64,000 nucleotides of DNA from a virus. Location: IMG/VR virus record IMGVR_UViG_3300022602_000029, positions 64,001 to 128,000 of that record; one strand, given 5' to 3'. This document shows, piece by piece, positions 39,630 to 56,513 of the stretch. The first letter of the stretch is position 1, and each line of letters begins with the position of its first letter. The notes beneath the pieces were generated by a model that worked only from the letters and a program-made list of their open reading frames with translations, did not search any database and was not told the origin of the DNA. The position numbers and the translations under genes are program-made.

Positions 39630-39656
39630 AACAGTATTTATAGGTTAAATACTCTC

Positions 39657-40346: not shown

Positions 40347-40371
40347 CCCTAGCCAAATATCCCAGTATACT
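40343..40371 (+). promoter_or_regulatory. Sigma70 promoter, leaderless, for the nucleotidase gene
   Basis: TTGACC-N17-TATACT, then 6 nt to ATG 40378. Confidence 0.75.
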
Positions 40372-40377
40372 AGTAGT

Positions 40378-40881: not shown

Positions 40882-40963
40882 AGAGCCCAACAAGCGCGAA
40901 GCGCGAGCGGTAAAAAAGATTTTTTCACTATCTGATTAAATACTGTGTTAAAGGAGATGAGGA

Positions 40964-41056
40964 ATGTTAGAGTTCTTTGCCGTGAGCCTAGTGGGTTTGG
41001 CCCTGCTGATCTTATTCATCGCTATCTTTAGATACTTTAGTGGAGATGATCAATGA
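40964..41056 (+). CDS. 30-aa single-pass membrane peptide
   Basis: MLEFFAVSLVGLALLILFIAIFRYFSGDDQ; RBS and TAAATA upstream; ATGA-coupled to the next ORF. Confidence 0.5.
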   Translation: MLEFFAVSLVGLALLILFIAIFRYFSGDDQ

Positions 41057-41187
41057 GATTCTGGAAAGTGACCTATCTGTTAGGCGACAGCGAAAATACC
41101 ACAGTGATAAGGGCCCTAAATCGTGCTATGATAGAACGTAGCATACCATCAGATTGGCGGATCGTAGGAGTAGAAGAAATAAGATGA
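41053..41187 (+). CDS. 44-aa hypothetical protein
   Basis: ATGA overlaps at both ends. Confidence 0.5.
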   Translation: MRFWKVTYLLGDSENTTVIRALNRAMIERSIPSDWRIVGVEEIR

Positions 41188-41450
41188 CACACAAGACTAT
41201 AACATGGCAGCTGGGACTGACTGGCACTGAAGTGAAAGAAGGCACCAAACGACTGAGCAAGTTGCACGTAGAGCTGGATAGATGGCACAAGGCCAATGGA
41301 TTCAAACAGCGTATATTCAATCTACAGATAACCCGTCCCTATACCTACGAAGCTGTGATAGACACGACAGATCCCAAGATCGAGCTGTTTTTAAATACTT
41401 TCCTACTGACCGCTGGCTCACAGTATACGCTGACAACTGTAGGCCAATAG
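41184..41450 (+). CDS. Hypothetical protein
   Basis: Start set at the ATGA overlap at 41184. Confidence 0.6.
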   Translation: MTHKTITWQLGLTGTEVKEGTKRLSKLHVELDRWHKANGFKQRIFNLQITRPYTYEAVIDTTDPKIELFLNTFLLTAGSQYTLTTVGQ

Positions 41451-41687
41451 AAACAGCGTACAAGACTTTTCCTGTCGGAAAGTGACTCCACAGAGATAAG
41501 CGTTGTGCAGAGTCCAAGTATCCCAGCACCATTCTCTATAGTGAGGACCCACGGAGCGTTCTAGCCAATCTTCTACGCTAGAGACAGCCTGCACCCAATC
41601 TGGTTGCCCATTGAACTCTATTATGGGCCAAGGTGCCACCGCCCGGTAGGGTAACCGTAGAGCAGGATGGTCATACAGTGCGGGCAT
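41418..41687 (-). CDS. Hypothetical protein
   Basis: TAAATA 5 nt before the ATG. Confidence 0.65.
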   Translation of the reverse strand: MPALYDHPALRLPYRAVAPWPIIEFNGQPDWVQAVSSVEDWLERSVGPHYREWCWDTWTLHNAYLCGVTFRQEKSCTLFLLAYSCQRIL

Positions 41688-41902
41688 GACTTTATTTACA
41701 CAGGGCCCGAAAAAGGTCAGGCTAGGGCAAAAAAATTGCTGTGCAAAATTTGCGGTGTAGGGCGATCTAGATCTAGGTGGTTTTAATCTAAGTCACTTTA
41801 GATTTAGGGGAAAAAATGGCAAGCTAGCTGTAGCTTTTACACAACAGCTTGTGCATGCACCTCCCCACCCCAGGGGCCCCTCGGGTGCCAGCAGGCAGGT
41901 CA

Positions 41903-42178
41903 TCAGGCCGTGCGCCTGCGGGCCTTGAACATATCCACCAGGGCAAGGTCTGCAGTAGCCAGGTGGGGCTCACGTCTCGTCACTGGCGCGGCAGCGCTGT
42001 CCTTAGGTGTGAACAGGTTGACCGTAGCTGAGGTAGCTGTAGTTATAGCACTAGCTGTGCCCACTACTAGCCTGTAAAGGGTCTGCGTGATCACTGTGGC
42101 CACGATCCCAATGCCCACTCCTGCTGCCATGCTGACGAACTCGTAGTAGTGTGCTGTGAGGAAGAGGTGTAACGTCAT
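41903..42178 (-). CDS. Small membrane protein
   Basis: Hydrophobic AAGVGIGIVATVI segment; GGAG RBS. Confidence 0.55.
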   Translation of the reverse strand: MTLHLFLTAHYYEFVSMAAGVGIGIVATVITQTLYRLVVGTASAITTATSATVNLFTPKDSAAAPVTRREPHLATADLALVDMFKARRRTA

Positions 42179-42212
42179 GTGGGACTCCTAGGGTTAATAG
42201 TTAAGGGCGATG

Positions 42213-42416
42213 TTAGATCGTATCGTCGATGACTTCTGCACTAAGGCAGTCGTTGATGTAAAGCACAGGGCCTTGGCTGTATTCACGCACGCCCACCATG
42301 CTGGCATCTACCGCACACTCGTATTCCATGTTCATGCTGATCTTCACGGGCAGAGTGGGATCGACCCTGCTTAAGATCTCTATCAGTTCTGCTACTGTTA
42401 ATGTATCGTTTGTCAT
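42213..42416 (-). CDS. Small acidic hypothetical protein
   Basis: Own promoter at 42445-42473 and an AAGGAGC RBS. Confidence 0.7.
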   Translation of the reverse strand: MTNDTLTVAELIEILSRVDPTLPVKISMNMEYECAVDASMVGVREYSQGPVLYINDCLSAEVIDDTI

Positions 42417-42486
42417 AGTGTGCTCCTTTGTTTGCTATGTATGTATTATACAGTCTTTTGGATGACCCGTCAAAGTCTAGGGTCTT

Positions 42487-42735
42487 TCAGCAGTCTGGAT
42501 CGAAATCGCGCCATTCATCGGCTTCGGTGGGATCTTCTTCAGGCGCTTCTTCATCCCAGATGACTTCTTCGTCGATCACGCCTAGATCCTCGACAGTGAT
42601 CTCACCGTCGGTAACCCCTTGGAATGCTGTGCGGAAACTCTGATGCTCAGCTAGGAAATCCAGGATCTCCTCTTTAGAAGTGCCCTCAGGAACTGTCAAC
42701 TCTTGGCTTAGGGTGGTAGTAACGATAACTTTCAT
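42487..42735 (-). CDS. Highly acidic small protein ending EADEWRDFDPDC
   Basis: Start set at ATG 42735, behind an RBS and a consensus promoter. Confidence 0.7.
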   Translation of the reverse strand: MKVIVTTTLSQELTVPEGTSKEEILDFLAEHQSFRTAFQGVTDGEITVEDLGVIDEEVIWDEEAPEEDPTEADEWRDFDPDC

Positions 42736-42787
42736 GTCAGCTCCTTTGTTGTTCATGTATGTATTATAACCCCAAATCCTAGTCCTG

Positions 42788-42988
42788 TCAACCTCTAAGG
42801 ACATTGAAGATGGAGTTCTGTAAATCTGCCACCTCATCGCTGGCGACATAGAAGTCTGTGCGGGGATCCCAGTACTCGCCTGCCTTTGGATCGTAGTACA
42901 GGACACGACCGTTGGGATAGTGGAATGGACCCTCTAGGCCCTTACGGCTAGTGAACTCCTGATTGTGCTTGAAAACGGTGTATGCCAT
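42788..42988 (-). CDS. Hypothetical protein
   Basis: RBS and promoter upstream; GRVLYYDPKAGEYWDP motif. Confidence 0.7.
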   Translation of the reverse strand: MAYTVFKHNQEFTSRKGLEGPFHYPNGRVLYYDPKAGEYWDPRTDFYVASDEVADLQNSIFNVLRG

Positions 42989-43061
42989 TGTGGGCTCCTT
43001 GTTGTCTATGTATGTATTATACTGCCAAAAAAAAGACCCGAGTCAACCGTAGGGTCTTTGA

Positions 43062-43271
43062 TCATTCTAGTGTTACCTGCACTGCTGCCGCTTCCCAGTC
43101 TCTGAGGGCGAATGTGGTGTTGCCCGCTCGTATCACCATAGCTGATCCCTTTGAGGCTGCGTGCAGCTTCCTCACGACTTCTCCTGGGATGAAACCCAGT
43201 TCCTTGAGCCGGTCATCACAGCAGTGTGTGATGCGTGCAGTGATTCCCAGCTCTAGTTCAGTGAGATTCAG
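43062..43271 (-). CDS. feoA: FeoA-like (SH3-fold) protein with a CTG start; not in the ORF track
   Basis: Translated by hand: (M)NLTELELGITARITHCCDDRLKELGFIPGEVVRKLHAASKGSAMVIRAGNTTFALRDWEAAAVQVTLE. RLxELGFxPGE and FALRxxEA match FeoA. Confidence 0.75.
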   Translation of the reverse strand: MNLTELELGITARITHCCDDRLKELGFIPGEVVRKLHAASKGSAMVIRAGNTTFALRDWEAAAVQVTLE

Positions 43272-43522
43272 ATGTCATCCTCAAGGGCTAGCTCATCTAC
43301 GGCTGCGTTGAAATCATCGATGAGGTCCTGCAGGCTCAGTTGTGATCGCTCCTTCTTGCGGCGCGGCTTCACTGAGCTACCCTCTTGATACACTAGCCAT
43401 ACGTGATCACAGCAGTAGCTTTTGCCTGTGATGCTGGGCCGACCGCAGGCCTTGCTGAGATCCAGCACACCCTCGCCCAGGTAGGTACAGGTGGATTCGT
43501 GATAGTTGTCATGTGTGCTCAT
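43268..43522 (-). CDS. Cys/His protein resembling the GcrA C-terminal domain
   Basis: C-x14-CG-x6-SYCxxH-xxx-VYQ pattern. Confidence 0.5.
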   Translation of the reverse strand: MSTHDNYHESTCTYLGEGVLDLSKACGRPSITGKSYCCDHVWLVYQEGSSVKPRRKKERSQLSLQDLIDDFNAAVDELALEDDI

Positions 43523-43782
43523 CGTGAGACCTTTTGTTCTAGTTCGTTGATCTGTCGTTGATATCTGTTGATCAGCTCGCGTTGTTCTACCATGCCTTTG
43601 GCCGCGTGATCTAGGGCATCTTCGTATCGAGTTGCGGCGTCATGCTCACCTTCCTGCCGTGCTATCCAATCGGCCGCCCAGAACAGGGCCAAGAAGCACC
43701 AGAACTGCCAACCCCAGGAAGGCACTCCCAGGCTATCGATCAGGATGCCTAGGGTGCAGTAAATGGCTATGCGCTCGATCAT
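43519..43782 (-). CDS. Membrane protein with a coiled-coil tail
   Basis: Hydrophobic, Trp-rich N-terminal half. Confidence 0.6.
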   Translation of the reverse strand: MIERIAIYCTLGILIDSLGVPSWGWQFWCFLALFWAADWIARQEGEHDAATRYEDALDHAAKGMVEQRELINRYQRQINELEQKVSR

Positions 43783-44645
43783 GTGCGTCTCATGCAGGTA
43801 GTCTTGGCCATAGCTTGCCAGTTGGTAGGAAAGGCTGCTCTCAAGTCGGCCAGCTTCAAGACCATGCGCAGGCTCAGCTCGCGTAGCTTGTCCTTGTGAT
43901 CTGTTATGAAGGCCAACAGCTCATCCCTTACAACGGGGTCGAACTCATATTTGTCCAGCATACCATCGCCTACGATCTGATTGATCCTTAGCATCTTTTC
44001 GCGCTGTGTGTCCATCTGGAGATCGATGTAGTGGCAGCGACTCTCCAATGCGTCCAAGTGGCTACGTAGCTTCTTGCTCTTGACGTGCTCGAACTTGATG
44101 TTAGTGATGAATATGGCTGAGCCCTTGAACTCGAAACGATCTGGGATGCCTTCACTGCGCAACATACGGCTGTCTGTGTTCCAGGCTATCCATCTCTTGG
44201 CGCTGGAGTCTAGGGCACCTTTGAGTATGTTCAGACTCAGCTCATCCAACAAGATCTGATCGCAGTCATCGAAGACCACTACGTTCTTCTCAGCGGCAAA
44301 CTCATATAGCTTGCTGTAGAGACCTAGTGCGCTCATGGCACCCTTCACGATCTCGTATTTGGGTTTGCGTTCGGCCAAGGTGTCAAACAGGCCGTCCTTC
44401 TGGAGCACAGCTTCTACGCCAAAGCTCTTGCCTACGCCTGGAGGGCCACTCACGATCATTGCACGCACGGTGCCTGACTTGACTGCCTTGGTCATGTCGT
44501 CTAGGATCGTGAATCTCTCTCTCAATCTCTCGATGATCTCTTGATCGCTCTCCTTGGCTACCTCACGCTCGCGTTGTGCGATGGCTGCTGTGTCGAACTC
44601 CAAGATCGTGGTGCCCGCTGTGGGCTTGGTGCTGGCTTTGGCCAT
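43779..44645 (-). CDS. AAA+ ATPase
   Basis: Walker A GPPGVGKS, Walker B VVFDDCD, ALESR. Confidence 0.85.
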   Translation of the reverse strand: MAKASTKPTAGTTILEFDTAAIAQREREVAKESDQEIIERLRERFTILDDMTKAVKSGTVRAMIVSGPPGVGKSFGVEAVLQKDGLFDTLAERKPKYEIVKGAMSALGLYSKLYEFAAEKNVVVFDDCDQILLDELSLNILKGALDSSAKRWIAWNTDSRMLRSEGIPDRFEFKGSAIFITNIKFEHVKSKKLRSHLDALESRCHYIDLQMDTQREKMLRINQIVGDGMLDKYEFDPVVRDELLAFITDHKDKLRELSLRMVLKLADLRAAFPTNWQAMAKTTCMRRT

Positions 44646-44710
44646 GTATTGCTCCTGCGTTGTTTAAAATCGTATTATAACATTATTTACTAGCCGAGTC
44701 AACCGCTAGT

Positions 44711-44824
44711 TTATCCAAAAAGGTATCGGGCCAAGGCGTTGCCCAGCACTACCAACATGATCGTGCAGGTGGCCAGGGTGAGAGCAGCCAAGAGTAGCAG
44801 GAGAGGGATTGGATCGTCTTTCAT
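44711..44824 (-). CDS. 37-aa membrane peptide
   Basis: MKDDPIPLLLLLAALTLATCTIMLVVLGNALARYLFG; TGATG overlap. Confidence 0.5.
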   Translation of the reverse strand: MKDDPIPLLLLLAALTLATCTIMLVVLGNALARYLFG

Positions 44825-44997
44825 CAGTAGGTTTCCTTGACTATGTAGTAGATATCGTCCGGGTAGAGTTCCTTGAATGCATCGGTCTTGATGTAGTCGT
44901 TCAGGGCCTGTGCATTCATGAACTTGCGATGGTACACTCCCACGTGCGTGTCTTTACGGCATACGGTTAGGTATACGCTTTTTGCGTGTCCGGCCAT
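44824..44997 (-). CDS. 57-aa hypothetical protein
   Basis: MAGHAKSVYLTV...IVKETY; TAATG and TGATG overlaps. Confidence 0.6.
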   Translation of the reverse strand: MAGHAKSVYLTVCRKDTHVGVYHRKFMNAQALNDYIKTDAFKELYPDDIYYIVKETY

Positions 44998-45194
44998 TAC
45001 TTGTTGACCTTCACGTTAGTTTTGAATGCTGCCCCGAGGATGACCACTGCAGCCCAGGTCGAGAAATCGTATGGGATGTTGAGTGCGGGGAATAAGGTGT
45101 TCAGGGCCCACAGTGTGAGGAGCGGACCGATGGCCACCAGTACGGCTACCACGACGATGGCTCCCAGGAGCTCTGCTAGTTTGTTTGTTTCCAT
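44997..45194 (-). CDS. Small two-TM membrane protein
   Basis: Start set at ATG 45194 behind an AAGGA RBS. Confidence 0.65.
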   Translation of the reverse strand: METNKLAELLGAIVVVAVLVAIGPLLTLWALNTLFPALNIPYDFSTWAAVVILGAAFKTNVKVNK

Positions 45195-45230
45195 TTGTTT
45201 TCCTTTAGTGTTACAGCGGGGTCTTGGCAC

Positions 45231-45479
45231 TTAGTAGTGCATAGGATGACCTACGTAGTTGTAGTCGTCCATAGGGTCTAGTTCGTCTTCAACTTCGGGC
45301 TCATACTCGTCATCAGGGAGCATGTTATTGCTCTCCATCATGTCGCCTACGTCCGCATCGCTCATGTAGCAGAGGCAAGCTTCTAATACTGTGTCTGCGT
45401 CTAAGAGACCTTCAGCTAGTAAGTCCATTAGCTTGACTGTGTTCTTGCGTGCCACGCTGCCGTTGTAGTATTCTATCAT
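45231..45479 (-). CDS. Acidic small protein ending DDYNYVGHPMHY
   Basis: Own promoter and RBS. Confidence 0.7.
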   Translation of the reverse strand: MIEYYNGSVARKNTVKLMDLLAEGLLDADTVLEACLCYMSDADVGDMMESNNMLPDDEYEPEVEDELDPMDDYNYVGHPMHY

Positions 45480-45583
45480 CTAGTGCTCCTTTTACTGCTT
45501 AAAAACTTATTATAACGCATTCTGTCCAAAATGTCAAATGCGCTGTAATAAGCCCTTATGGGCTGTAGGGTTATTATATAACA

Positions 45584-45739
45584 TTAATCCACGTAGTAGT
45601 CAACCGTTTGCAATAGTGTGCTCATTGCGTTCTCTAACTCGTTAAAGCACTCCAGTTCCGCTAGTTGTACCCCATCGCATGTTGCCTCCAACAGCATAGC
45701 TTCCACTTCCGCTAGTTTAACAAGTATTGCATCTTTCAT
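45584..45739 (-). CDS. 51-aa acidic protein
   Basis: MKDAILVKLAEVEAMLLE...VDYYVD; own promoter at 45759-45787 and RBS. Confidence 0.65.
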   Translation of the reverse strand: MKDAILVKLAEVEAMLLEATCDGVQLAELECFNELENAMSTLLQTVDYYVD

Positions 45740-45822
45740 TTGTGCTCCTTAAAAACTTATTATAACGCATTTTGGCAAAACTGTCAAATGCGTTATAAAA
45801 AGCCCTTACGGGCTTAGTGTTA

Positions 45823-46008
45823 TTATGCGTCCAGTTCCATTTCCTCTATGTTAGTAACAACATCTTTCAGTCCGTCCTCTAACGCCTCTGCTATTAAATT
45901 ACGCTGTGCTGTCTCAGCGTTAACTCTGCTACTGTAAACGCCTGTATTATAAAAAGCGTTCTCATCGTCGCCCCATCCCAGCACTTGCACAATGTAAACT
46001 TTTTGCAT
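45823..46008 (-). CDS. Small acidic hypothetical protein
   Basis: AAGGAGC RBS; promoter at 46035-46063. Confidence 0.65.
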   Translation of the reverse strand: MQKVYIVQVLGWGDDENAFYNTGVYSSRVNAETAQRNLIAEALEDGLKDVVTNIEEMELDA

Positions 46009-46108
46009 GCCAGCTCCTTTGTTAGTGTAAGTGTATTATACAATAAAAAAGAAACCCGCACAAATGGCGGGCCTTTGGGAGTGTGGCCCAAAAGCCACAC
46101 CACCATGA

Positions 46109-46714
46109 TTACTCGTTGACTGCGCTCACACCTCCGTCTAGATCGATCTCTTGATTCTCCTCGTCTTCATACTCGGCAATCGTTTCTGATATCGCAAACA
46201 TCTCATCGAGATCCTCGGGGATGGCATCCTTGACTTGATCGCTAGTCATGTCAGAGAGATTGTAGCCTTCATCCCCGTCTGCATCAAACACGCCACAGAA
46301 GGCCATTCCGGATTCATAGTAATAGGCCTTTACACCGAACCCTAGATCAAGTAACCTTTCGTAGGCAGCGATAGGAGGGGCCCAGGCACTGTCAAAGTAA
46401 AAACTGACGCTGTTAGAATCTAACCTAGTGATACTGCCATCATCACCCCCGACGTCCCACTTAGTGCCCCACTCGTTGACACAATAATCATACCAGTTTT
46501 TGTAACCGTGTTTGATCTTGTTGTCTAGCTCTTTCTGCTCTAGTGCCGCCTGCTCATCAGGATCTCCCACACGGCCTGCCACGATCTGTAGATCGGATGG
46601 GATAGGAATAAACTCATCGAGCAGTCTACTATCAGCAAATGCTCGTGCCGCACGCTCGATCATCTCTGGGTCTGTGTGGGTTAACTTGAGGTTGTTGTTA
46701 CACCAGTTTGGCAT
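46109..46714 (-). CDS. YubB/Api92-like ferredoxin-fold protein (DUF1281-type)
   Basis: MPNWCNN, WGTKWD, FDSAWAPP and YYESGMAFCG motifs. Confidence 0.75.
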   Translation of the reverse strand: MPNWCNNNLKLTHTDPEMIERAARAFADSRLLDEFIPIPSDLQIVAGRVGDPDEQAALEQKELDNKIKHGYKNWYDYCVNEWGTKWDVGGDDGSITRLDSNSVSFYFDSAWAPPIAAYERLLDLGFGVKAYYYESGMAFCGVFDADGDEGYNLSDMTSDQVKDAIPEDLDEMFAISETIAEYEDEENQEIDLDGGVSAVNE

Positions 46715-46723
46715 AGGATCTCC

Positions 46724-46885
46724 TTAAATGGTTGAAGTGTCTATTATACTGTCTGCTAGTAAGACTGTGATCTCATAGGCTTTTTTACAACGGAATCTCG
46801 CCTGCGCTTTTTGCTGTGCCTCATAGGAGCTCGAGGCCTGGACAGCGATCTCCTTGCCGCGATATAGGCAGATGTAATCTCTCAT
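46724..46885 (-). CDS. 53-aa hypothetical protein
   Basis: MRDYICLYRGKEIAVQASSSYEAQQKA...; AAGGAG RBS. Confidence 0.6.
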   Translation of the reverse strand: MRDYICLYRGKEIAVQASSSYEAQQKAQARFRCKKAYEITVLLADSIIDTSTI

Positions 46886-47067
46886 GCAGTCTCCTTTGGG
46901 GTCATAAGTTTACGCATATCTCTCATAAACAAACGGATGGCTTCTGCATCCGGTGCGAACAGTTCATCCCTGAGATCCCACATCTCTGTGGCCGCCATAA
47001 GGATGTCACAGTTGGTGTTTTGCTCGGCATACGCTTGTACTCTCTCACACGCTTCTGCTATTAACAT
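46882..47067 (-). CDS. Small hypothetical protein
   Basis: GGGAGC RBS and a TATAAT upstream. Confidence 0.6.
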   Translation of the reverse strand: MLIAEACERVQAYAEQNTNCDILMAATEMWDLRDELFAPDAEAIRLFMRDMRKLMTPKETA

Positions 47068-47159
47068 AAGTGCTCCCTTTAAAAGTAATATTATAGCGTC
47101 AAATTAGATTGGACTTACATGGGCGTGGCTAAAAAGCCACTTGGTCCCAATGCCTGGTA

Positions 47160-47345
47160 TTAGATATCGTATTGGTCAGCGTACCATTCGTCGTCGATCA
47201 TGTTCTGGCGATTGCGGAACTCGTTGTAGTCACGCTCGTCTTCAGCCATGTTTTCCTCAACTTGTGCGCCTGCTTGGTCTAGTGTGAGACCTTGTGCTAA
47301 CAGCTCTGCGATCTGTGCGTTGTACTCTTCCTGGCTATAAAACAT
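47160..47345 (-). CDS. Highly acidic small protein
   Basis: Own promoter at 47372-47400 and RBS. Confidence 0.65.
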   Translation of the reverse strand: MFYSQEEYNAQIAELLAQGLTLDQAGAQVEENMAEDERDYNEFRNRQNMIDDEWYADQYDI

Positions 47346-47408
47346 AAGTGCTCCTTTGTTGCTATGTGACGATTATACTGCCAAATAATACCCGAGTCAA
47401 CCGTAGGG

Positions 47409-47663
47409 TTAATATTCGTAGAACTCAACCGTAGGATCCAAGGCCTTGAGCTCTGCGGCCACTTGTGTCAGTTGCTTGTAGCGGCGCTGGACTTCACTGC
47501 GAGGTAACTCACCATCACAGCTAAGGTTCTCAGGGCTTAGTGCCGCATCGATGTGTGCAGCGAGTTGGCGGCGGCCTACTGCTGTAGTGATCTCATACTG
47601 GCGGCCGTTGAACATGGCGTTCCACTTGTTTTGCTGGGCGATGTAGGCTTTGAGTGCTGTCAT
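47409..47663 (-). CDS. Hypothetical protein
   Basis: Own promoter at 47684-47712; LSPENLSCDGE motif. Confidence 0.7.
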   Translation of the reverse strand: MTALKAYIAQQNKWNAMFNGRQYEITTAVGRRQLAAHIDAALSPENLSCDGELPRSEVQRRYKQLTQVAAELKALDPTVEFYEY

Positions 47664-47775
47664 ATGTGCTCCTTAAAAACATTATTATACTGCCAAATAA
47701 TACCCCAGTCAACCTTAGGGTCTTTCTCTCAGTCCTTCCCTGCACGCTGCGTCGTGAAACCTGATGACATGGTCG

Positions 47776-47815
47776 TGAAAAAGCCCCAGAGATCCAACGT
47801 TAGGATCCTGGGGCT
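47776..47815 (-). terminator. Intrinsic terminator downstream of the wHTH gene
   Basis: On the minus strand: AGCCCCAG-GATCC...GGATC-T-CTGGGGCT followed by a T-tract. Confidence 0.75.
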
Positions 47816-47856
47816 AGTGCCTGGGGAGCGACTACCAGGACTTTGGGAGCAACCTA

Positions 47857-48132
47857 TTAAAGGGTGATGCCCAGGGCCATGGCCTTGTAACCTAGAGCTA
47901 CTAGCTCCTGGCTTGGGGTTCCCATTACATACTCTACCACGTGAGCGTTGTTACCTGCTACACGGTTCTTACGATATACAGCGAAACCATGCTGACGAAC
48001 ACGGCTGACCTCAGCGCTGATGTTTTTGATACCAAAACGCTTTTCAGCTTGGCTAGCAGTAATACGCTCGCCGGCCTGTAGTGCCTTGAATAACTTGTAT
48101 GCTTTGGTTTCTTGATTGAACTTCTTAATCAT
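47857..48132 (-). CDS. Winged-helix DNA-binding protein
   Basis: KLFKALQAGERITASQAEKRFGIKNISAEVSRVRQHG HTH pattern followed by a beta-wing. Confidence 0.6.
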   Translation of the reverse strand: MIKKFNQETKAYKLFKALQAGERITASQAEKRFGIKNISAEVSRVRQHGFAVYRKNRVAGNNAHVVEYVMGTPSQELVALGYKAMALGITL

Positions 48133-48179
48133 TTTTGTTGTTTCCTATATGTTGCTGTACTTAAACAGTTACATATATA

Positions 48180-48470
48180 TTACGCTTTCTTTACTGGCTT
48201 TGCAACTGGTTTTTTATCCAACTTCTTACTATTTCGTCCAACTGATCTAATGCTTGTTTCATTCTTCGCTCCAAATTCTTTTGTTACGTAATAGCGGATT
48301 AGGGATCTCTGGATCATCGTTACGAGATCCCCGTTGTCATCCGTGATGAACCGGACCGGACAGCGTCCCCAGGTGCCCAACCTTTGGAACTCTTCGAACC
48401 ACTTGCGATGGGCCTTGAGTTCCGGGTCAAAGACTACCCAGGGTCTACACATGTATGAGAGTCTACTCAT
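48180..48470 (-). CDS. Hypothetical protein with a basic tail
   Basis: ORF preceded by the GACCCCGCTG motif. Confidence 0.6.
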   Translation of the reverse strand: MSRLSYMCRPWVVFDPELKAHRKWFEEFQRLGTWGRCPVRFITDDNGDLVTMIQRSLIRYYVTKEFGAKNETSIRSVGRNSKKLDKKPVAKPVKKA

Positions 48471-48498
48471 TGGGTATTACAGCGGGGTCTCTGTATGT

Positions 48499-48906
48499 TT
48501 AGAAAGGTGCGTCTTCGAGATCGGCCTTAGTAGCGATACCTAATGGAGCCATGCCCTCTAGCGCTGGAACCTGTGGAGTTACCGCAGCCTTAGCTGGAGT
48601 TTCTTTCTTAGGCTTCTTAGCTTCTTTGTTAGGCTTTTGCTCTTTCTTGGCAGCCTGTGTAGAGACCCCACGCTTCTCAGCGGCAGCTTCGAGAGCGGCA
48701 CGCACGGCTTTGTTGCCGTTGTCAAAGTTGATGCTCAACAGGTATGCTACAGCATCTTCCTTGGTCATGGGGTTCTTGAGCTCGATGATATCGATATCTT
48801 TGTGCCCATTTTTACGTAGTACCTTGACACGCATAGCGTCATTGCAGAAGCGGACTTTGAACTCACCGTTTTGTTTTGAAACTCCGGCATGTGTGAACTT
48901 AGACAT
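48499..48906 (-). CDS. Hypothetical protein with a Lys/Ala-rich tail
   Basis: Start set at ATG 48906 (AAGGAG RBS); promoter at 48959-48987. Confidence 0.7.
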   Translation of the reverse strand: MSKFTHAGVSKQNGEFKVRFCNDAMRVKVLRKNGHKDIDIIELKNPMTKEDAVAYLLSINFDNGNKAVRAALEAAAEKRGVSTQAAKKEQKPNKEAKKPKKETPAKAAVTPQVPALEGMAPLGIATKADLEDAPF

Positions 48907-48983
48907 GTTAATCTCCTTGTAAATGTCTGTGTGTGAAAAATAACTAACTGGAACTATTAATATAGCACAGCTAGTTCGAACTG

Positions 48984-49259
48984 TCAACTGTTAATAGTTT
49001 CGAAAGGGCTCAGATCTTCGGTCTGTGGCTGATCCGCCACACCCTCACCATCCAACCAAGCTAACACCATCTCGATTGGAATCTCGAGCACGTTGGCGAT
49101 GGTTTTGGCACTCATGCCGTCGATGTAGAGTTGCTCGATATCATATGCGATGTCTTTCATTGCGCTCATTTCGTTCTCCAGTTTAGTGATTTCAATCTCA
49201 TCCCTAACCCCTCGGCTAGGGCTTTCCCTTAGTGCTTGTAGTCGAGCATGGATACTCAT
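48984..49259 (-). CDS. Small HTH-like protein
   Basis: GMSAKTIANVLEIPIEMVLAWL pattern; RBS. Confidence 0.6.
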   Translation of the reverse strand: MSIHARLQALRESPSRGVRDEIEITKLENEMSAMKDIAYDIEQLYIDGMSAKTIANVLEIPIEMVLAWLDGEGVADQPQTEDLSPFETINS

Positions 49260-49271
49260 AGTTGCTCCTTG

Positions 49272-49760
49272 TTAAGCGATTAGTTCCATAGTGTCAGAAA
49301 CAGAAGCCAATGCTTCAGCTAGTGGCACTAGCTTGTTGTAAAACTTCACGTCTGATTCGTAGGTGTTGCCCGCATACCACACACCATCCTGCATGATGTA
49401 GTACCATTCAGCGCCGCAGCCTTCAGCACGCTCAAAGAACTTGTCAAAGGTGTCGTCTACCTTCCACTCAGTACCAGTCTCGCCGCGATCGCGTCCGTAA
49501 AAGGTACAGCTATCACCGTGCTCGGCATCGTAGGCTGCCTGCTGATCTTCAGTGAGATCGTATGTGCTGAATGCATGCTTCTCTCCGATGTTCTTCTTGA
49601 GGCTGCTGAGATCGCCCAGTGATACTAGCTGGTTGGCCTTTGAGCTGTCGTAGTGTTGGGCTAAGAGTTGGCCATTGTGCTCTAGGTAGCCATCCCAGTG
49701 GCAGTATACGCTCTTGCAGTTGCTGCCGTGCATGACTCCGATGCGTGATCTTGTTCCCAT
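49272..49760 (-). CDS. Hypothetical phage protein (MGTRSRIG...YCHWDGY type)
   Basis: Own promoter at 49794-49822 and RBS. Confidence 0.75.
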   Translation of the reverse strand: MGTRSRIGVMHGSNCKSVYCHWDGYLEHNGQLLAQHYDSSKANQLVSLGDLSSLKKNIGEKHAFSTYDLTEDQQAAYDAEHGDSCTFYGRDRGETGTEWKVDDTFDKFFERAEGCGAEWYYIMQDGVWYAGNTYESDVKFYNKLVPLAEALASVSDTMELIA

Positions 49761-49818
49761 AAAGTTCGCTCCTTTTTGTTTAACAATAGATATATTATAC
49801 GATCAAAACTGCCGCCCG

Positions 49819-50043
49819 TCAACCAAAGGCACGCAATAACCCTACAACCATTATGGCTATTGATATCACGTTCACTGTCAGCTGTGGGCGATTCTTGACC
49901 CGATAGGCCCAGAAGGTAAAGGCCGCTGTGCCTACGGTGAAGCTCACGATGTTCCAGGGATAGGCCGCGGGCCCCACGCTGTTGAGTGCATGCCCTAGTA
50001 CTATGAGTACTGCGCCCGCCCACTGCACATGATCTAGCTTCAT
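49819..50043 (-). CDS. Small multi-pass membrane protein
   Basis: Three hydrophobic segments. Confidence 0.65.
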   Translation of the reverse strand: MKLDHVQWAGAVLIVLGHALNSVGPAAYPWNIVSFTVGTAAFTFWAYRVKNRPQLTVNVISIAIMVVGLLRAFG

Positions 50044-50312
50044 ACCACTTCCAACATGTTAGCTGGCACCTTCCAGAGACCCTCTGTGGTGCTGACCGTG
50101 ACGTATTTCTGTGCGATCTTGGTCACACTGCCCTGCATGGTTCGGCCGCGCCGCACGCTGTTAAAGGTCACTGCCTGCCCTAGGCGTAGCCCGCGCTTGT
50201 TTTCAGAGATCAGCCTGTGACGGGCGAACTTGACAGCTTCAGTGATGGTGTTCAATTCATCATTAGTGAACGAACCATGGATGATGGCTTGGTTGACTTG
50301 ATCGATGTTCAT
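50040..50312 (-). CDS. Hypothetical protein with an SH3-like C-terminus
   Basis: Own promoter at 50334-50362 and RBS. Confidence 0.65.
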   Translation of the reverse strand: MNIDQVNQAIIHGSFTNDELNTITEAVKFARHRLISENKRGLRLGQAVTFNSVRRGRTMQGSVTKIAQKYVTVSTTEGLWKVPANMLEVV

Positions 50313-50358
50313 GAGTGCTCCTTAAAAAAACTTAGTATACTATCGGTTTTACCATTTG

Positions 50359-50763
50359 TCAAGCTTCTTTATAGTGCTTCCACTTGTTGTGATCTCCTGC
50401 TCGCTTGCCTTTTTCCGAATGGCATAAACTACAGAGTTCCTGTAGATTTTGTGGACGATTGTCCGTGTTATCACCGTTCTTGTGATCTACTTCTGTGCTT
50501 AGTTTAAAGCCTGTAGATGCTACCAAGTCCCAATCTACTACACAGGGGAACCCTAGCCTGCTATTAATGTTAGAACAACGATTTTTCTTGAACCTTTTAA
50601 CCCCCGGAGCCAATGGATAATCCATATAGCTGTTCTTGTGACAAGTGCCGCAGAACACTCTATATCTCACATCTGATCCACCTACTCGTCCCCTCTGAGT
50701 GGCGCAGAGACTGCCACAGCCTGGGTTGATACAGATCGGTCTAAAATGTAATACTCGTCCCAT
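50359..50763 (-). CDS. HNH endonuclease with Zn-binding motifs
   Basis: EVDHKNGDNTDNRPQNLQELCSLCH. Confidence 0.8.
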   Translation of the reverse strand: MGRVLHFRPICINPGCGSLCATQRGRVGGSDVRYRVFCGTCHKNSYMDYPLAPGVKRFKKNRCSNINSRLGFPCVVDWDLVASTGFKLSTEVDHKNGDNTDNRPQNLQELCSLCHSEKGKRAGDHNKWKHYKEA

Positions 50764-50816
50764 AAGTCGCTCCTTGTTAGTCTATGTCGCTATTATACTG
50801 CCAAAATAAAGACCCT

Positions 50817-51137
50817 TCAATCTCCCCGGGTATCAGTGTTGAGCTCTGGGCGCAACTGCCTGCGTAGCTCCACTTCTCTGCGGTGCGCCTCGGCCTTGCC
50901 CCTGATGACTTCTAACACTGCTACAGTGATCTGGCTCTTGTCCTCTAGCAGCCTCAGCACTGAGCAGAGGCTCCAGTCCTTGGCCTCCGTGTGCGCACGA
51001 TAGAAGTGCTTGGCAGCACGGGTCCTGGCGCTTTTCAACGCTGTAGACTCTGTCTTAGCCGTGACACCCACGTAGCGCAGTGTGCCCACTGTCAGCTGAT
51101 AGATCACATGATTTCGATCGGTTCTTTTCTTTCTCAT
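50817..51137 (-). CDS. GIY-YIG-like nuclease-domain protein
   Basis: VIYQL...RYVGVT; R..KH; HRREVEL...PELN. Leaderless from promoter 51144-51172. Confidence 0.65.
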   Translation of the reverse strand: MRKKRTDRNHVIYQLTVGTLRYVGVTAKTESTALKSARTRAAKHFYRAHTEAKDWSLCSVLRLLEDKSQITVAVLEVIRGKAEAHRREVELRRQLRPELNTDTRGD

Positions 51138-51200
51138 ACACATATTATACAGTCGGTTTTACCATTTGTCAACCCTATGCTTGTAAAGATATGTAAAGCT

Positions 51201-51461
51201 TCAATCAGTAGGTCCCTTCTGCACCCTAGCCGCGGGATCTCCTCCGAGGATCCTCTTGATCTCAGTATCTGGATCACCCCGGGCCCTGGCCGATCTCCAT
51301 TCCGTTTCTCGCTGCTCGTCCTGAGCGCTGTCCTCTGTATACTGTCCGGGGCACACAGCATAGTCTGAATCACAGGCCGTGCCCCACAACAGCTCCGCTA
51401 AGACCCAGATCAAGAACACCACGAGGAACATGGTTTCTAGGGTCCAATCCGTCTTTTTCAT
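51201..51461 (-). CDS. Small membrane-anchored protein
   Basis: Hydrophobic N-terminus; GAAGG RBS. Confidence 0.5.
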   Translation of the reverse strand: MKKTDWTLETMFLVVFLIWVLAELLWGTACDSDYAVCPGQYTEDSAQDEQRETEWRSARARGDPDTEIKRILGGDPAARVQKGPTD

Positions 51462-51484
51462 AGTTAGATACCTTCTTTGATCTT

Positions 51485-51745
51485 AGAGAAACCCCGGCAG
51501 GACCTTCACGATCCCTGCCGAGGCTCAATCTGGGCTACTGCTAGTTCAGTTCCCAGAGCCCTCCTCCCCGTTTATGACTACCTCATATACGGTATAGCAC
51601 GCGGCTGCCTCCGCGAGGATTCTAGCACAGCACGGCTCCATGATGATCGCTCATCTCAGCTAGGCTGCCTCCTTAGTTCCGGCGCTTATCTAGACCACGG
51701 CAGCGGCTAGATCAAACCCGGGATTCTCTGTGCTATAGGCTTATA
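51485..51745 (-). ncRNA. Candidate ~260-nt structured small RNA
   Basis: Promoter at 51752-51780, several clean hairpins including a GNRA loop, and a terminal GC-rich hairpin; no credible ORF. Confidence 0.5.
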
Positions 51746-52088
51746 GTCACTAGTATACAGCCAATACACTACTAGGTCAACGTGTATATAGTACTAGACA
51801 CATATACACTCATGTAGCTATACACACATGTAGACATATACTCTAGCTCAAGATCCACACGCACATACCAGGACGGCTCTTAGCAGCGGGGTCATTTTAG
51901 ATCTAACTGTATATAGCTGGCTATATGGTCCTAGACCGTAGGGGCGCAGAATCAGGGGATTTCTGGTAAAATCGGTAGGAAAAACTGTGAAAACCATACC
52001 TAGATCTGTTGTTTCTACGCTGAAATCTAGCGTAATAAATCTTGACAGGCCGTTTGGCGAGACAGGCTATGCCAAAATACTTTTCAAG

Positions 52089-52141
52089 TTATCCACAGGC
52101 TATCCACAGCTTATACACATGTTATACACTCGTTATCCACT
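52089..52141 (+). repeat. Five tandem DnaA boxes at 11-bp period
   Basis: TTATCCACA 52089, CTATCCACA 52100, TTATACACA 52111, TTATACACT 52122, TTATCCACT 52133. Confidence 0.85.
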
Positions 52142-52485
52142 GGGTTGTCAACGTAGAAGTCACCCTGCTATCCCCTGCTAGAGCTTTACAGCGGGGTCAT
52201 CTTACAGTACAGCCAGAGTTAACTAGAGTTAGCATCTATCTTCTACTAGAAGATCTGGGCTATTCTAGCTTTTTTTACCGCTGAGCCTTACAGGCTAACT
52301 ACGGACTAACTAAGGGTTAACTAGCTACAGCGGGGTCTTTACAGCTATTAGACTATTCGTGTATACTGTGTGTACTGCGATTAGATATCTTATACGGGCA
52401 TTTGTATCTAGAATCACTATGAGTAGCCGGTGATGTGTGTCACTAGCACTTAGACATATTGCTTCTTGGCTATAAATATCTCTAT

Positions 52486-53640
52486 ATGAGATACAAAGAA
52501 TTCGCACCTACTGAGTCTGTTACAGCTGGTACATCTGATTGGCAACCGCTTTATCAGCTTTCACGACAGCTATATCAGCACGTCTATATCAAGGCTCTGG
52601 GACCGCGTGTTAGAGTACAGGTCAAGGACCTAGACAGCGTCTACACAGATCGCGATGGTAGTGATCTAGATGGTAAGATAGATCTAGAGTTTTGGCTAGA
52701 CGCTCCGCATGACTGGGACGTTATTAAGCAGAGCTACGAAGCTGGTGAGGATGATCACTGGCTAGTTGACTATCACATCACAGAAGCCGCTGATCAAGTA
52801 GCTGATGCTATACGTCGCTACTATGGCGATACTTGGGCTGAGATCAGCAATGAGCTAGAGGGCGGTTGGGGAGTGGATGGATCAGTCACAGAAGATGTGC
52901 AGTCGGCGGAACCGCTACCTCTGCGTGGCTATGAGAATCTCTACGTAGAAGATAGTTCACAAGGGCCCTTGCTCTATGGTGTAGACCTAGAATGGCACGG
53001 GGAATCGGGCATCATAGGTTGGTTTGACTTCACGGCTAATCTCTCGACTGGTGTATTCGAGATAACTGGTAATAGGGCCAACAGAACTAGTGGGGGCGAG
53101 TTCGACACTGACGGTGACCTAGAGCGGTGGATCGAAAGCTGTATCGAGGACGCACAGCGCGAGTATGGTACCGATTGGGATGATATCGATAGCGAGCTAC
53201 ACGGCAGCTGGGGAGTAGATGACACTGATGAATCCCTTGGTCAAGTGGCCAGCTTAGAAGCTACACCCATAAAAAACATCGATTCAGATCGTCTACAGCA
53301 GGCCATCACTACCATAGCCCAGTTGGTGCACGATCGACAGATGGCCTATGGTGTGGCCCAGCGTAGCACCCTAGAAAAGGAACAGGCCGCCAGATACCAA
53401 AAACGCTACGCCGCTGTAGCCGCAGATCGACTCAAGGCAGAACAGGGCGAACTGGCCGTGGCAGATCTGGCTACGGCCCTGTATCGATATGTCTATCAAC
53501 ATCAAGCAGGGCACCCCATGGGCGGTAGCAAGAGCCATAACCCCCTGCTACGTGACTTTTTAGAAAATGATGTTACTGTGTCAGTAGATGATCAAGGCGG
53601 ACTGCATCCCGAAGAAAGCAGTTGGGGTGTCGACAGCTGA
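52486..53640 (+). CDS. Acidic three-module protein; each module ends in WGVD
   Basis: Start set at ATG 52486 (MRYKEF), 7 nt after TATAAATA. Confidence 0.7.
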   Translation: MRYKEFAPTESVTAGTSDWQPLYQLSRQLYQHVYIKALGPRVRVQVKDLDSVYTDRDGSDLDGKIDLEFWLDAPHDWDVIKQSYEAGEDDHWLVDYHITEAADQVADAIRRYYGDTWAEISNELEGGWGVDGSVTEDVQSAEPLPLRGYENLYVEDSSQGPLLYGVDLEWHGESGIIGWFDFTANLSTGVFEITGNRANRTSGGEFDTDGDLERWIESCIEDAQREYGTDWDDIDSELHGSWGVDDTDESLGQVASLEATPIKNIDSDRLQQAITTIAQLVHDRQMAYGVAQRSTLEKEQAARYQKRYAAVAADRLKAEQGELAVADLATALYRYVYQHQAGHPMGGSKSHNPLLRDFLENDVTVSVDDQGGLHPEESSWGVDS

Positions 53641-54809
53641 TGAGAGCACGGGATTTCCTGCTGTTGGAATACGACAGATCCAAGACCCTAAAGACCTTTG
53701 GCACCAAGCTACTGCAGGCCCTGGCTAGAGATCCCACAGCGGACCCCAAGCTCAAACATCAGCAGGATCCCAAGCAGGTATTAGATCAGATAGAAACTAA
53801 CGACCCCACTGAGCACAAGGAATACACACAATGGCTGGCCAAATGCTACAGCAATGAGGCGGTCAAGCTAGAGGACATCAACAGCAAGGCACAAGAAGCC
53901 CTGGCCCTTTATCATCAGATGAAACGCAAGCGCCTGTTCCGTGGTGAATACAGCGCCTGGGGTGACATCTACAAGCTGTCATTCCGTGATCTGCTGAAGG
54001 TGGTGAATACTGCCCAGCTGAGCCAACAGCTGAATCGAGAAAAGAAAGAACGACCCAAGGGTAGCGCCACAGAAATACTACGCAACGACCAAGTGCGTAT
54101 CTTGAAGATCAACGATGAGGCCGCGGCCAAATACTACGGGCAGGGCACCACATGGTGCACTTCAGGTGACAAGGACAATCGTTTCAACTACTACAACGAC
54201 AAAGGCCCCATATTCGTGCTACTGCCCCAACACCCCCAGTATCAGGGTGAAAAGTATCAGATACACATAGCCACAGATCAGTTCATGGACCCCCAGGATG
54301 AGCCAGCAGGCGGGGGTACTGACATGGGCAGTTGGTATCTGTTGAAACGACGCTTTGGCGACATCACCTCCGTGATAGCAGAAAACGACCCCAACATTTA
54401 CCTTAACCTATACTTGATAGATGAAGTCACGTTCAACAGAGTATTGGACAAGGTCAAGGCCCTGGCCTATAGACGGGTGGGTGAGTTCCGTGATCTCTAC
54501 GGTGAAGATGCTCTACCCGATGATTGGATAGAAGAATACAATGAGTTTCTGGAAGAACTGGATCGGAGGGCCCTGATAGATCTACAGCAGGAACTAGACT
54601 ACCAAGATGGCCATCACAGGGATCTATTGGCCATACCAGATATGATAGCCTTGCCTATACTCAGCGAGCACTATGGTGTGCTGGGCGATCTAGACAACGG
54701 TGATCTTGCCCATGATCTAGCGCAGGCCATAGGCTACGGTATCGTGATCCAACATGATGGCAAGGGCAAGTTTACCGTAACTCTAGACCACCAATACGAC
54801 CCACATTAG
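53640..54809 (+). CDS. Hypothetical protein with a TxWC(T/I)S domain
   Basis: Starts MRARDFLLLE at a TGATG overlap; GTTWCTS motif shared with the 61977 protein. Confidence 0.65.
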   Translation: MRARDFLLLEYDRSKTLKTFGTKLLQALARDPTADPKLKHQQDPKQVLDQIETNDPTEHKEYTQWLAKCYSNEAVKLEDINSKAQEALALYHQMKRKRLFRGEYSAWGDIYKLSFRDLLKVVNTAQLSQQLNREKKERPKGSATEILRNDQVRILKINDEAAAKYYGQGTTWCTSGDKDNRFNYYNDKGPIFVLLPQHPQYQGEKYQIHIATDQFMDPQDEPAGGGTDMGSWYLLKRRFGDITSVIAENDPNIYLNLYLIDEVTFNRVLDKVKALAYRRVGEFRDLYGEDALPDDWIEEYNEFLEELDRRALIDLQQELDYQDGHHRDLLAIPDMIALPILSEHYGVLGDLDNGDLAHDLAQAIGYGIVIQHDGKGKFTVTLDHQYDPH

Positions 54810-55588
54810 GGTCCAGGGCTGAATATGGGCTTGGCCGCTAGGCTATCCGATGGGGGCTGTAGTATGGTCCAATCCGTGCCCAAGACAGGAGTTAGGTGTA
54901 TGTGGCTACGGGGTATCCAATACTTGTCTCCATCTATCTTGAGCTGATCCACTAGGTTGCTGAATGCGCTGTCTATCAGGATCATGGCCTGGGCACCCTC
55001 TATGACCTTGAGCCAATCAAACACGCTGTCAGTCAAGGCCCTTATTTCTATGCGTTGCCAGTCCGAAGGTACGTTGCTGAGATCAGCCGCACACCTGTAG
55101 GTGCTACCCTCTGTGTGATAGACCATGTACTGCTCTTGGGTCACTACCTTATCATAGAGCCGTTGCTCTCGCTCTGGGTTCCTAGTGATGCACTCACCTA
55201 GGGTCCATTTCTTCAGGAAGGGTACCCCCGCTTTAGAATACTTGAACTCGTCAAAATGCTGTATCTGGAAGAAGGGCTGTTGGCTCAGTTCTGGGCGTAT
55301 GTTCAGGGCCTGGTATAGGCATATGATCTCATCGCACTTGAAGGCCTTGAGCCTCTTTTCGGGCTCGGTATAAAAGAAGTCGCCCTTGCTGTCTTCGGGT
55401 ATGGGTATCCAGTGTACCCAAGGCACTGTCTCTTTGACAGACCCCCAGAATGGCTCACAGATGGGCCAATAGATCTGGTAGCCCTCATCGGCCCAGTATC
55501 GGGCGATGGGCAGGGCTATGATGATATCACCTAGCCCCCTTGATTGTATGATTCCTAGTTTCTTCATATTTTTAGTTATCGAATTCAA
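54806..55588 (-). CDS. GT9-like glycosyltransferase
   Basis: RGLGDIII N-terminal motif; LIDSAFSNL. Confidence 0.6.
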   Translation of the reverse strand: MNSITKNMKKLGIIQSRGLGDIIIALPIARYWADEGYQIYWPICEPFWGSVKETVPWVHWIPIPEDSKGDFFYTEPEKRLKAFKCDEIICLYQALNIRPELSQQPFFQIQHFDEFKYSKAGVPFLKKWTLGECITRNPEREQRLYDKVVTQEQYMVYHTEGSTYRCAADLSNVPSDWQRIEIRALTDSVFDWLKVIEGAQAMILIDSAFSNLVDQLKIDGDKYWIPRSHIHLTPVLGTDWTILQPPSDSLAAKPIFSPGP

Positions 55589-56513
55589 AAAGTTGATCGA
55601 GCAATGTTGGCGCTTGGCTCGGGGGTGTTATAGAAGGACTGTGTAACAAGATCTCCTCAGCGGTCTTGGCCGTATGGGTAGTGTTGTTGTTTTCATCTAC
55701 GGTCTTGGCCCTGCGTCCTGCTGTATAGGTGATAGGGTATTTCTTTAGTATCAACTGACCCTGTTGCTGTGTGTAGAACGCATCTCCGCATTCTCTGTTA
55801 CAGTAGAACACTAGATCTCCTGCTAGGTCCTGTTGCCGACAGAACGTGATCAGATTGGTATGATCCTGATCAGTAAAGGTCTGGCTATAACTGGTAAAGC
55901 TATCTCTATAGGGTGGGTCAAAGAACCAAAAGGTCCTGCCCTGTTTCAGCGCAGTACAGTTCTGCCAGATACCGCAGGTGATGTCTACCCTTTGTAGGAA
56001 GTTATGCCATTCTATAACATTGTCTCTGTCATAGACCTTGACCGTTTGATTTAGCAATCCGCTGGGTGTGGCGAATCTGCCATTGCTGGTCTGGTTAGTC
56101 TGCCATATGCCGTTGAAACCGGTCTTCATCAAGAAGTAAAGGCTAGCACTTTCATCTGTGCTGTTCCATTGATGCCAGTTAGTGGTATACTCTCTGCGTA
56201 GGTCGTAGTAGAAAGCCTTGCGATCTATCTTAGATAAAGGTAGATACTGTAGCGTGAGGGCATCCATACGGGCCATGAAGTTCACGTGATCTGATTTGAT
56301 AGCCCTGTAGATACCTATGATCTCTGCGTTGATATCATTCAAGATAAACTTAGTGATGTTGGGACAGTTTTGGGCTACCCAACACATCATAGCGCCTCCT
56401 CCAAAGAAGGGTTCAGCGTAGGTATCATACCCAGATGTGGGTATGCCTGGATCCACTAGATATTTAGGGATCATCTTGTTCTTGCCACCTGCCCAGATAT
56501 ATAATGGTTTCAT
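55572..56513 (-). CDS. dam: DNA adenine methyltransferase (D12 class, Dam-like)
   Basis: WAGGK, EPFFGGGA, NDIN and DPPY motifs. Confidence 0.9.
   Translation of the reverse strand: MKPLYIWAGGKNKMIPKYLVDPGIPTSGYDTYAEPFFGGGAMMCWVAQNCPNITKFILNDINAEIIGIYRAIKSDHVNFMARMDALTLQYLPLSKIDRKAFYYDLRREYTTNWHQWNSTDESASLYFLMKTGFNGIWQTNQTSNGRFATPSGLLNQTVKVYDRDNVIEWHNFLQRVDITCGIWQNCTALKQGRTFWFFDPPYRDSFTSYSQTFTDQDHTNLITFCRQQDLAGDLVFYCNRECGDAFYTQQQGQLILKKYPITYTAGRRAKTVDENNNTTHTAKTAEEILLHSPSITPPSQAPTLLDQLFEFDN

Follow-up and report, generated by a model that had tools for sequence, protein, structure and literature searches.

A structured noncoding RNA of about 258 nt at the head of an early transcript in uncultivated giant phages

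Comparison of homologous sequences makes it close to certain that the minus strand of the window encodes a real, selected, structured, and noncoding RNA of ~258 nt. The window is the whole 64,000-nt stretch of DNA that was analyzed, i.e., bases 64001–128000 of a 193,746-base IMG/VR virus record that is ~54% complete. The RNA is previously uncatalogued and has no Rfam family, and its distribution is narrow, the carriers being a small group of uncultivated giant T4-like phages. It would form the head of the leftmost early transcript, directly 5′ of a gene for a small membrane protein. As to its role, we tentatively favor that of a leader acting in cis, either as a sensor or as an attenuator.

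Genomic setting and homologues

The large terminase of the record has its nearest cultured counterpart in the Pseudomonas jumbo phage PA5oct (57% identity). The RNA sits in a 997-nt gap that separates a divergent 393-aa gene from the leading member of an array of small early genes. This array runs leftward over 10 kb and has a near-consensus sigma-70 promoter at each gene. The G+C content is ~49–51% in the early-gene block (window 38000–56000) vs ~35–44% in the flanking structural and late regions. ARAGORN detected no tRNA genes, either in the window or across the full 194-kb record. Within the array, a 108-aa protein (50817–51143, minus strand) has an N-terminal pattern (...VIYQLT...YVGVT...R...H) that to the eye resembles GIY-YIG; Pfam and PHROG gave no match for the protein, whose gene adjoins an HNH endonuclease gene at 50359–50763. 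The coordinates of the features discussed below are given in Table 1.

Five homologues of the RNA are present in metagenome contigs and are 97% to 60% identical to it, and L002/L022 is its sole near relative in IMG/VR; the number of independent lineages is only four. Contigs L078, L079, L083, and L084 were obtained through homologues of the downstream 86-aa protein, and L081, an 18.8-kb contig whose genes are in the same order, was obtained through a homologue of the upstream 393-aa protein. A member of the small membrane-protein family lies 3′ of the RNA in six of six copies, a linkage that is partly by construction, as the downstream gene was the route to four of the five homologues. Four further contigs (carrying P0001, P0003, P0008, and P0011) have the same gene order with a noncoding gap of at least 400 nt.

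The deepest lineage is L081, where a 252-nt stretch is recognizably the same RNA, with the gene for a 98-aa homologue of the small membrane protein after it. Here the TTGACC-N17-TATACT promoter is followed first by a tRNA-Met(CAU) gene with an encoded CCA (L081:5012–5088, minus strand) and then by the RNA, and an extra 81-aa gene (L081:5191–5436, minus strand) lies between the DnaA boxes and the promoter. From these two inserts, it follows that the head of the early region accepts insertions while the module of promoter, RNA, and gene is kept. L079 looks like a recombinant with a crossover inside the invariant core, because the 5′ third of its RNA (L079:985–1236) resembles the lineage of the window and the 3′ third, together with the downstream gene, resembles the lineage of L078.

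Searches beyond these contigs covered cultured phages, bacteria, and metagenomes. By blastn, cultured phages had no match to the region, and E. coli genomes had none to the RNA region. Pattern scans of IMG/VR with the second hairpin and with the twin pattern gave chance matches or coding repeats plus the one near relative, and two scans combining blocks conserved across the family gave the near relative only. A looser pattern for the 3′ domain found 42 loci, none of which was matched by the covariance model, and two conserved-block patterns had no match in 185,579 GTDB species genomes. The model (R1, see below) detected no copy in PA5oct and, in the genome record of the window itself, none beyond the one described. 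Seventeen kin IMG/VR records, which were selected for a similar terminase and include two complete genomes of 354 and 322 kb, also had no copy. Scanning metagenomes with a 20-mer of the core gave a single match, in the unrelated contig L080, which we attribute to chance since about two chance matches are expected for the 20-mer searched; the contig carries an exact 22-mer of the RNA core, CTAAGGAGGCAGCCTAGCTGAG (L080:2914–2935), and no further similarity.

The earlier note, which was made from the sequence alone, had placed a TTGACC-N17-TATACT promoter ahead of the RNA, and a promoter scan concurs. The −35/−10 arrangement is retained in L078, L079, L083, and L081. The predicted transcript start should lie 1–3 nt before helix P0; we infer both the 5′ and the 3′ end of the RNA. 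On the other side, the ribosome-binding site of the downstream gene lies within 17–33 nt of the RNA. Homologues of the encoded 86-aa protein are 92–27% identical; the protein has no family match, and a protein atlas likewise gave no useful lead. The promoter scan found no promoter between the RNA and this gene in the window or in L081, and therefore the gene must be expressed by transcription through the RNA. No promoter-like site was found on the plus strand in 50756–52337, the range scanned for an antisense promoter, whereas a type I toxin mRNA leader of the hok/zorO kind would have one overlapping it or next to it.

In all lineages the RNA comes directly after the promoter that opens the leftward early array, and it stays promoter-proximal even where a tRNA is inserted (L081). 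It could therefore be a cis-acting processive antitermination RNA, which would modify the transcribing polymerase and so let it read through stops in the 10-kb array. The put RNAs of HK022 are likewise folded RNAs immediately downstream of an early promoter, but they are far smaller and simpler than a 258-nt RNA. Moreover, nearly every downstream gene in the array has a near-consensus promoter of its own, terminator-like sites in the array are not enriched (9 vs 7.3 expected), and no boxA-like sequence is conserved, a candidate GCUCU stretch having been rejected as part of the covarying P6 stem. We consider a put-like role very unlikely.

A second role suggested by position is that of an origin transcript, which would form an R-loop or a primer beside the DnaA-box array in the manner of ColE1 RNA II or the T4 origin transcripts. 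The RNA lies ~340 bp from phased DnaA boxes, and DnaA-box-like repeats occur close to the L083 promoter and in the upstream region of L081. However, transcription runs away from the DnaA boxes, the boxes of L081 are ~600 bp from the RNA with the 81-aa gene and the tRNA between, and the compensatory changes and G-U pairs indicate selection on RNA pairing and not on DNA sequence alone. An origin transcript is in our view highly improbable.

The repeats of the two relatives are rows of 9-mers with 11-nt spacing, CTGTGTATAG three times in L083:190–230 and TGTGGATAG/TGTGGATAA in L081:5670–5720; both rows are upstream of the conserved promoter, consistent with the DnaA array in the window. The same upstream regions share a motif, (A/T)GACCCCGCTG, which is found at 51883–51892 and 52188–52197 of the window and in the same orientation at L083:52–61 and 163–172 and at L081:5181–5190, 5470–5479, and 5749–5758. 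Often seen as ATGACCCCGCTG just before or after small genes, it is conserved and probably a signal, e.g., a phage-specific promoter or protein site.

Table 1. Features of the RNA and its surroundings, in window coordinates; double changes are pairs altered on both sides
Feature	Position	Strand	Remarks
Sigma-70-type promoter, TTGACC-N17-TATACT	51752–51780	−	Promoter scan agrees, 10/12 matches
Structured RNA, 258 nt, 11 helices	51487–51744	−	Closed by P0, P7 at end; covariance model R1, 285 bits
P0	51740–51737 with 51561–51558	−	Closes ~183-nt domain that starts near the predicted transcript start
P1	51623–51735	−	Closes multi-way junction; UAGCACAG 51735–51728 with CUGUGCUA 51630–51623
P2, long hairpin	51679–51721	−	Apical loop UGCC 51702–51699; double changes in 5/18 pairs
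P2 tip, AUCUAG-CCGC/GUGG-U-CUAGAU	51712–51688	−	
89-nt hyper-conserved core	51598–51686	−	Junction, first twin, GNRA hairpin, P1 3′ strand, second twin
First twin hairpin, AGG-AGGCAG-CCU	51662–51673	−	3 pairs, invariant
GNRA-capped hairpin in short closing helix	51635–51660	−	GAUGA-GCGA-UCAUC at 51655–51642
Second twin hairpin, GCGG-AGGCAG-CCGC	51601–51614	−	Loop 51610–51605
P1′, GUGCUAUA	51593–51600	−	Alternative partner of 5′ segment 51737–51730
HpC, variable hairpin	51568–51592	−	Double changes in 4/8 pairs
P6 hairpin	51530–51556	−	3′ of P0 domain; double changes in 4/9 pairs
Terminal hairpin P7 with U-rich tail UUUCUCU	51485–51526	−	3′ of P0 domain; hairpin 51526–51490; ~14–17 bp, −26 kcal/mol
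77-aa ORF, not a gene	51477–51710	+	Open frame in window; broken in homologues
86-aa small membrane protein gene	51201–51461	−	Downstream of RNA in every copy
393-aa gene	52459–53640	+	Divergent; flanks 997-nt gap

Evidence for a folded, noncoding RNA

The 289-nt transcript has a predicted folding energy of −112.2 kcal/mol vs −97.3 ± 5.4 kcal/mol for shuffled sequences (z = −2.8). The covariance model R1 was built from the five closer sequences and has 253 positions and 82 pairs, and it matches the 60%-identical L081 over the full length at 75 bits (E = 5e-21). In an alignment of all six sequences, which was fitted to the model and hence favors it, 95.4% of the cells form standard pairs, and 26 of the 82 pairs are changed on both sides, compared with three to five when the partners are slid by one to three columns. 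None of 500 shuffles reached the observed pairing and covariation values. An independent MAFFT/RNAalifold run gave 18 compensated pairs, and numerous G-U pairs fit the minus strand alone. The structured noncoding RNA of ~260 nt that the earlier note had proposed is thus borne out by homologues that keep the fold through compensatory changes.

The RNA is also better conserved than the gene next to it. Nucleotide identity between the window and L083 is 77% in the RNA and 64% in the downstream gene, and between the window and L081 it is 60% and 44%, respectively. The 89-nt core shared with the window is identical at 89/89 positions in L002, at 88/89 in L078, and at 82/89 in L083. Between the window and L083, 13 of 20 fourfold-degenerate sites of the downstream gene differ, which amounts to saturation. 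At ~92% identity, the core greatly exceeds these synonymous sites in conservation.

A reading with no functional RNA at all would make the region a neutral spacer or let it code for protein, through a small sense ORF or through the 77-aa ORF of the plus strand. It could appeal to the 77-aa frame, which is open in the window and in which a conserved coding signal had been named in advance as a possible refutation of the RNA. The frame is split by a stop in L078/L079, shifted in L083, and absent in L081, i.e., broken in three of the four lineages, and it has no Pfam or PHROG match. Comparison of the homologues found no conserved ORF on either strand of the RNA region. Because the 77-aa frame is broken in the homologues, we conclude that the region is noncoding; the strong conservation and the structure-preserving substitutions already contradict a coding stretch or spacer, which we find barely credible. 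A leader peptide is also unlikely, since short AUG-initiated frames vary in position or frame among the homologues.

No known family was recognized. The earlier note had been unable to assign one, and our Rfam (15) search agrees, with no match in the window at gathering scores. When E values up to 10 were admitted, the gyrA RNA model gave 22.4 bits vs a threshold of 45, in a match that spans the terminal hairpin and the ribosome-binding site; it was not reproduced in the homologues, and we rejected it as chance. ARAGORN did not recognize the RNA as a tmRNA or tRNA-like molecule. The twin-hairpin sequence GGAGGCAGCC is one that we took to be SRP-RNA-like or 16S-like, a resemblance dropped since no model supports it. 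The motifs in a published survey of candidate structured RNAs in IMG/VR span 29–151 nt, and a motif had to match three or more regions (PMC10690425); for these reasons the RNA is unlikely to be among them.

Architecture of the RNA and pairing between its loops

The hairpins that the earlier note had described one by one are all present on the minus strand, namely the P2 tip, the GNRA-capped hairpin, the terminal hairpin, the two hairpins with GGAGGCAGCC, and both 8-bp partners of the 5′ segment. What had been described as a long irregular stem is instead two separate hairpins, HpC and P6. Six of the eight pairs of P1 are changed on both sides, and the junction that this helix closes holds P2, the first twin hairpin, and the GNRA-capped hairpin. 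The loop of the last is GCGA, or GCAA in L083 and L081, and its stem in L081 is GGAUCA/UGAUCC. After the P1 junction come the second twin hairpin, whose stem covaries (CCUU/AAGG in L081), the variable hairpin HpC, and P5. The sequence of HpC is replaced in L078/L079 and in L083, and the hairpin is retained. The terminal hairpin P7 has a predicted stability of −19 to −26 kcal/mol across the lineages, and it is followed in all of them by GGUUUCU, with the tail reading UUUCUYU. P7 is a possible weak terminator or 3′-end hairpin; the terminator scan did not call it, and part of the U-run can pair into the stem.

The identity of the twin loops, which had drawn attention to the region, is kept in three lineages and lost in L081, where the loops are UGGAGG and GUACAG. 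The two hairpins also differ in their comparative record. The first twin hairpin has no covariation and competes with an alternative hairpin, CAGC-CUA-GCUG in the window, which by reading corresponds to GAGGC-CUA-GCCUC in L081 with two compensated pairs. When the four lineages were read one by one, each had a second twin loop complementary to the P2 apical loop; the pairings are GGCAG/CUGCC, GGCAGC/GCUGCC, GGCAG/CUGCU, and, in L081, GUACAG/CUGUGC. In all four, this is the best or joint-best complementary pair of loops. Because the complementarity recurs in all four lineages with compensating changes, at two positions, we infer that the second twin loop may dock on the P2 apical loop as a kissing-loop contact.

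Two identical GGAGGCAGCC hairpins and several other GGA stretches had also suggested a CsrA/RsmA sponge, in which GGA displayed in loops would titrate a host protein of the CsrA family; CsrB, RsmY, and RsmZ similarly have hairpins with G-rich sequence bearing GGA. Judged by terminase, the closest cultured relative is a phage of Pseudomonas, a genus with Rsm proteins, although Pseudomonas may not be the host of the window phage. The RNA, in contrast to the known sponges, contains 8 GGA in 258 nt vs 6.5 in shuffles (P ~0.3), each GGA straddles a stem-loop border or sits in a stem of the consensus fold, and the GGA sites are not conserved in L081, whose twin loops have changed. Furthermore, the second twin loop has a better-supported partner within the molecule. 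With no excess of GGA, and no GGA contained entirely within a loop of the supported fold, the sponge proposed in the earlier note is unsupported, and we regard it as extremely improbable.

Action in cis or in trans

The earlier note had offered a sponge, a decoy against host defense, or a switchable leader of the 86-aa gene. Of these three ideas, the switchable leader is the most plausible, and the position that it presumed for the gene holds up, with a homologue directly 3′ in every copy and no promoter between. A covarying structured domain is thus found in the 5′ UTR of a recurring gene. We tentatively favor action in cis because the order of promoter, RNA, and gene is invariable, even in L081, a contig reached without use of the downstream gene, because the terminal hairpin has a conserved U-rich tail, and because candidate competing pairings are present. 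Under such a mechanism, host RNA polymerase would start at the sigma-70-type promoter and make the RNA as the opening portion of the leftmost early transcript, and the folded 5′ domain, either alone or with a ligand or protein bound, would choose between two states. In one state, P7 with its UUUCUYU tail would form, and transcription would stop or pause. In the other, competing pairings would block P7, with the 5′ strand of P7 paired to the P2 tip and P1 exchanged for P1′, such that polymerase and ribosomes would continue into the small membrane-protein gene.

The competing pairings are weakly supported. The mutually exclusive pairings of the 5′ segment proposed earlier are both largely kept; for P1′, 87.5% of the cells pair vs 15–57% in slid controls, with two double-changed pairs, but 41 of 500 shuffles do equally well. 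Among upstream partners for the 5′ strand of P7, the P2 tip ranks first in three lineages and second in the fourth, at −16.6 to −22.1 kcal/mol, values that are partly due to repeated GGCAG/CUGCC words. Other points also weigh against a cis leader: P7 is not called by the terminator scan, the downstream gene suggests no ligand, and the comparison covers only four independent lineages with four of the five homologues found via that gene.

The 89-nt core and the co-transcribed tRNA of L081 suit a stand-alone stable RNA at least equally well. Such an RNA would be discrete and act in trans. Termination or processing would free it at P7, and in L081 tRNA processing would release its 5′ side. Its compact fold would be catalytic or would serve to bind, or to imitate, some component of the host or the phage (e.g., as a protein-binding decoy), with the downstream gene expressed by read-through. 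We consider this quite possible, and nearly as likely as a cis leader, because a tRNA is co-transcribed in L081, because the 5′ end is closed, and because the core is nearly invariant. In L081, the tRNA-Met lies between promoter and RNA, as in phage operons for tRNAs and stable RNAs; the 5′ end of the transcript coincides with the closing helix P0; and P7 would shield the 3′ end. The conservation of the RNA above that of the neighboring gene points the same way, and a GNRA loop together with a kissing loop is typical of RNAs that fold autonomously. On the other hand, the same gene family always lies tightly 3′ and lacks its own promoter, no partner protein gene is evident nearby and no trans target can be named, and the RNA is present in a single copy per genome in a narrow lineage.

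Known systems resemble the RNA in part. As in riboswitch and attenuator leaders, it lies in the 5′ UTR of one gene family and combines a multi-helix junction with a near-invariant core, a GNRA loop, a probable kissing loop, a stable end hairpin with a U-rich tail, and candidate exclusive pairings; the lysine riboswitch, for instance, is a large junction aptamer stabilized by loop–loop contacts. Unlike those leaders, the RNA has no Rfam family and no suggested ligand, and its end hairpin is atypical and uncalled by the terminator scan. The rnaC and rnaD RNAs of T4 (species 1 and 2, NC_000866 70908–71171) are also structured and phage-encoded, and the L081 copy resembles them further in sharing a unit with a tRNA. 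However, our RNA is about twice as long, most of its members have no adjoining tRNA, and a protein gene is always 3′. With filters off, model R1 scored no more than 3.5 bits across T4 69500–74500, the region of rnaC/rnaD and the tRNAs, which gives no sign of similarity.

Few phage-encoded structured RNAs have a known role. The RNA described here offers strong comparative support, a defined architecture, a highly conserved core, and a fixed position in the early program beside a DnaA-box array, although its narrow distribution limits present claims. At 258 nt, it is compact and synthesizable, and in vitro probing does not depend on having the uncultivated phage. A bolder proposal, which we hold to be rather doubtful, is that it is a new compact riboswitch-like sensor or protein-capturing RNA that, as the very first product of infection, reads or alters the state of the host and sets early expression, with a fold that is based on the kissing loop of P2 and the second twin hairpin and on a GNRA contact and is unrelated to described aptamers or ribozymes. 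If the RNA is a sensor or attenuator, it would be a case of an RNA controlling the very start of infection; a stand-alone RNA, in turn, would represent a new fold and probably a new host target.
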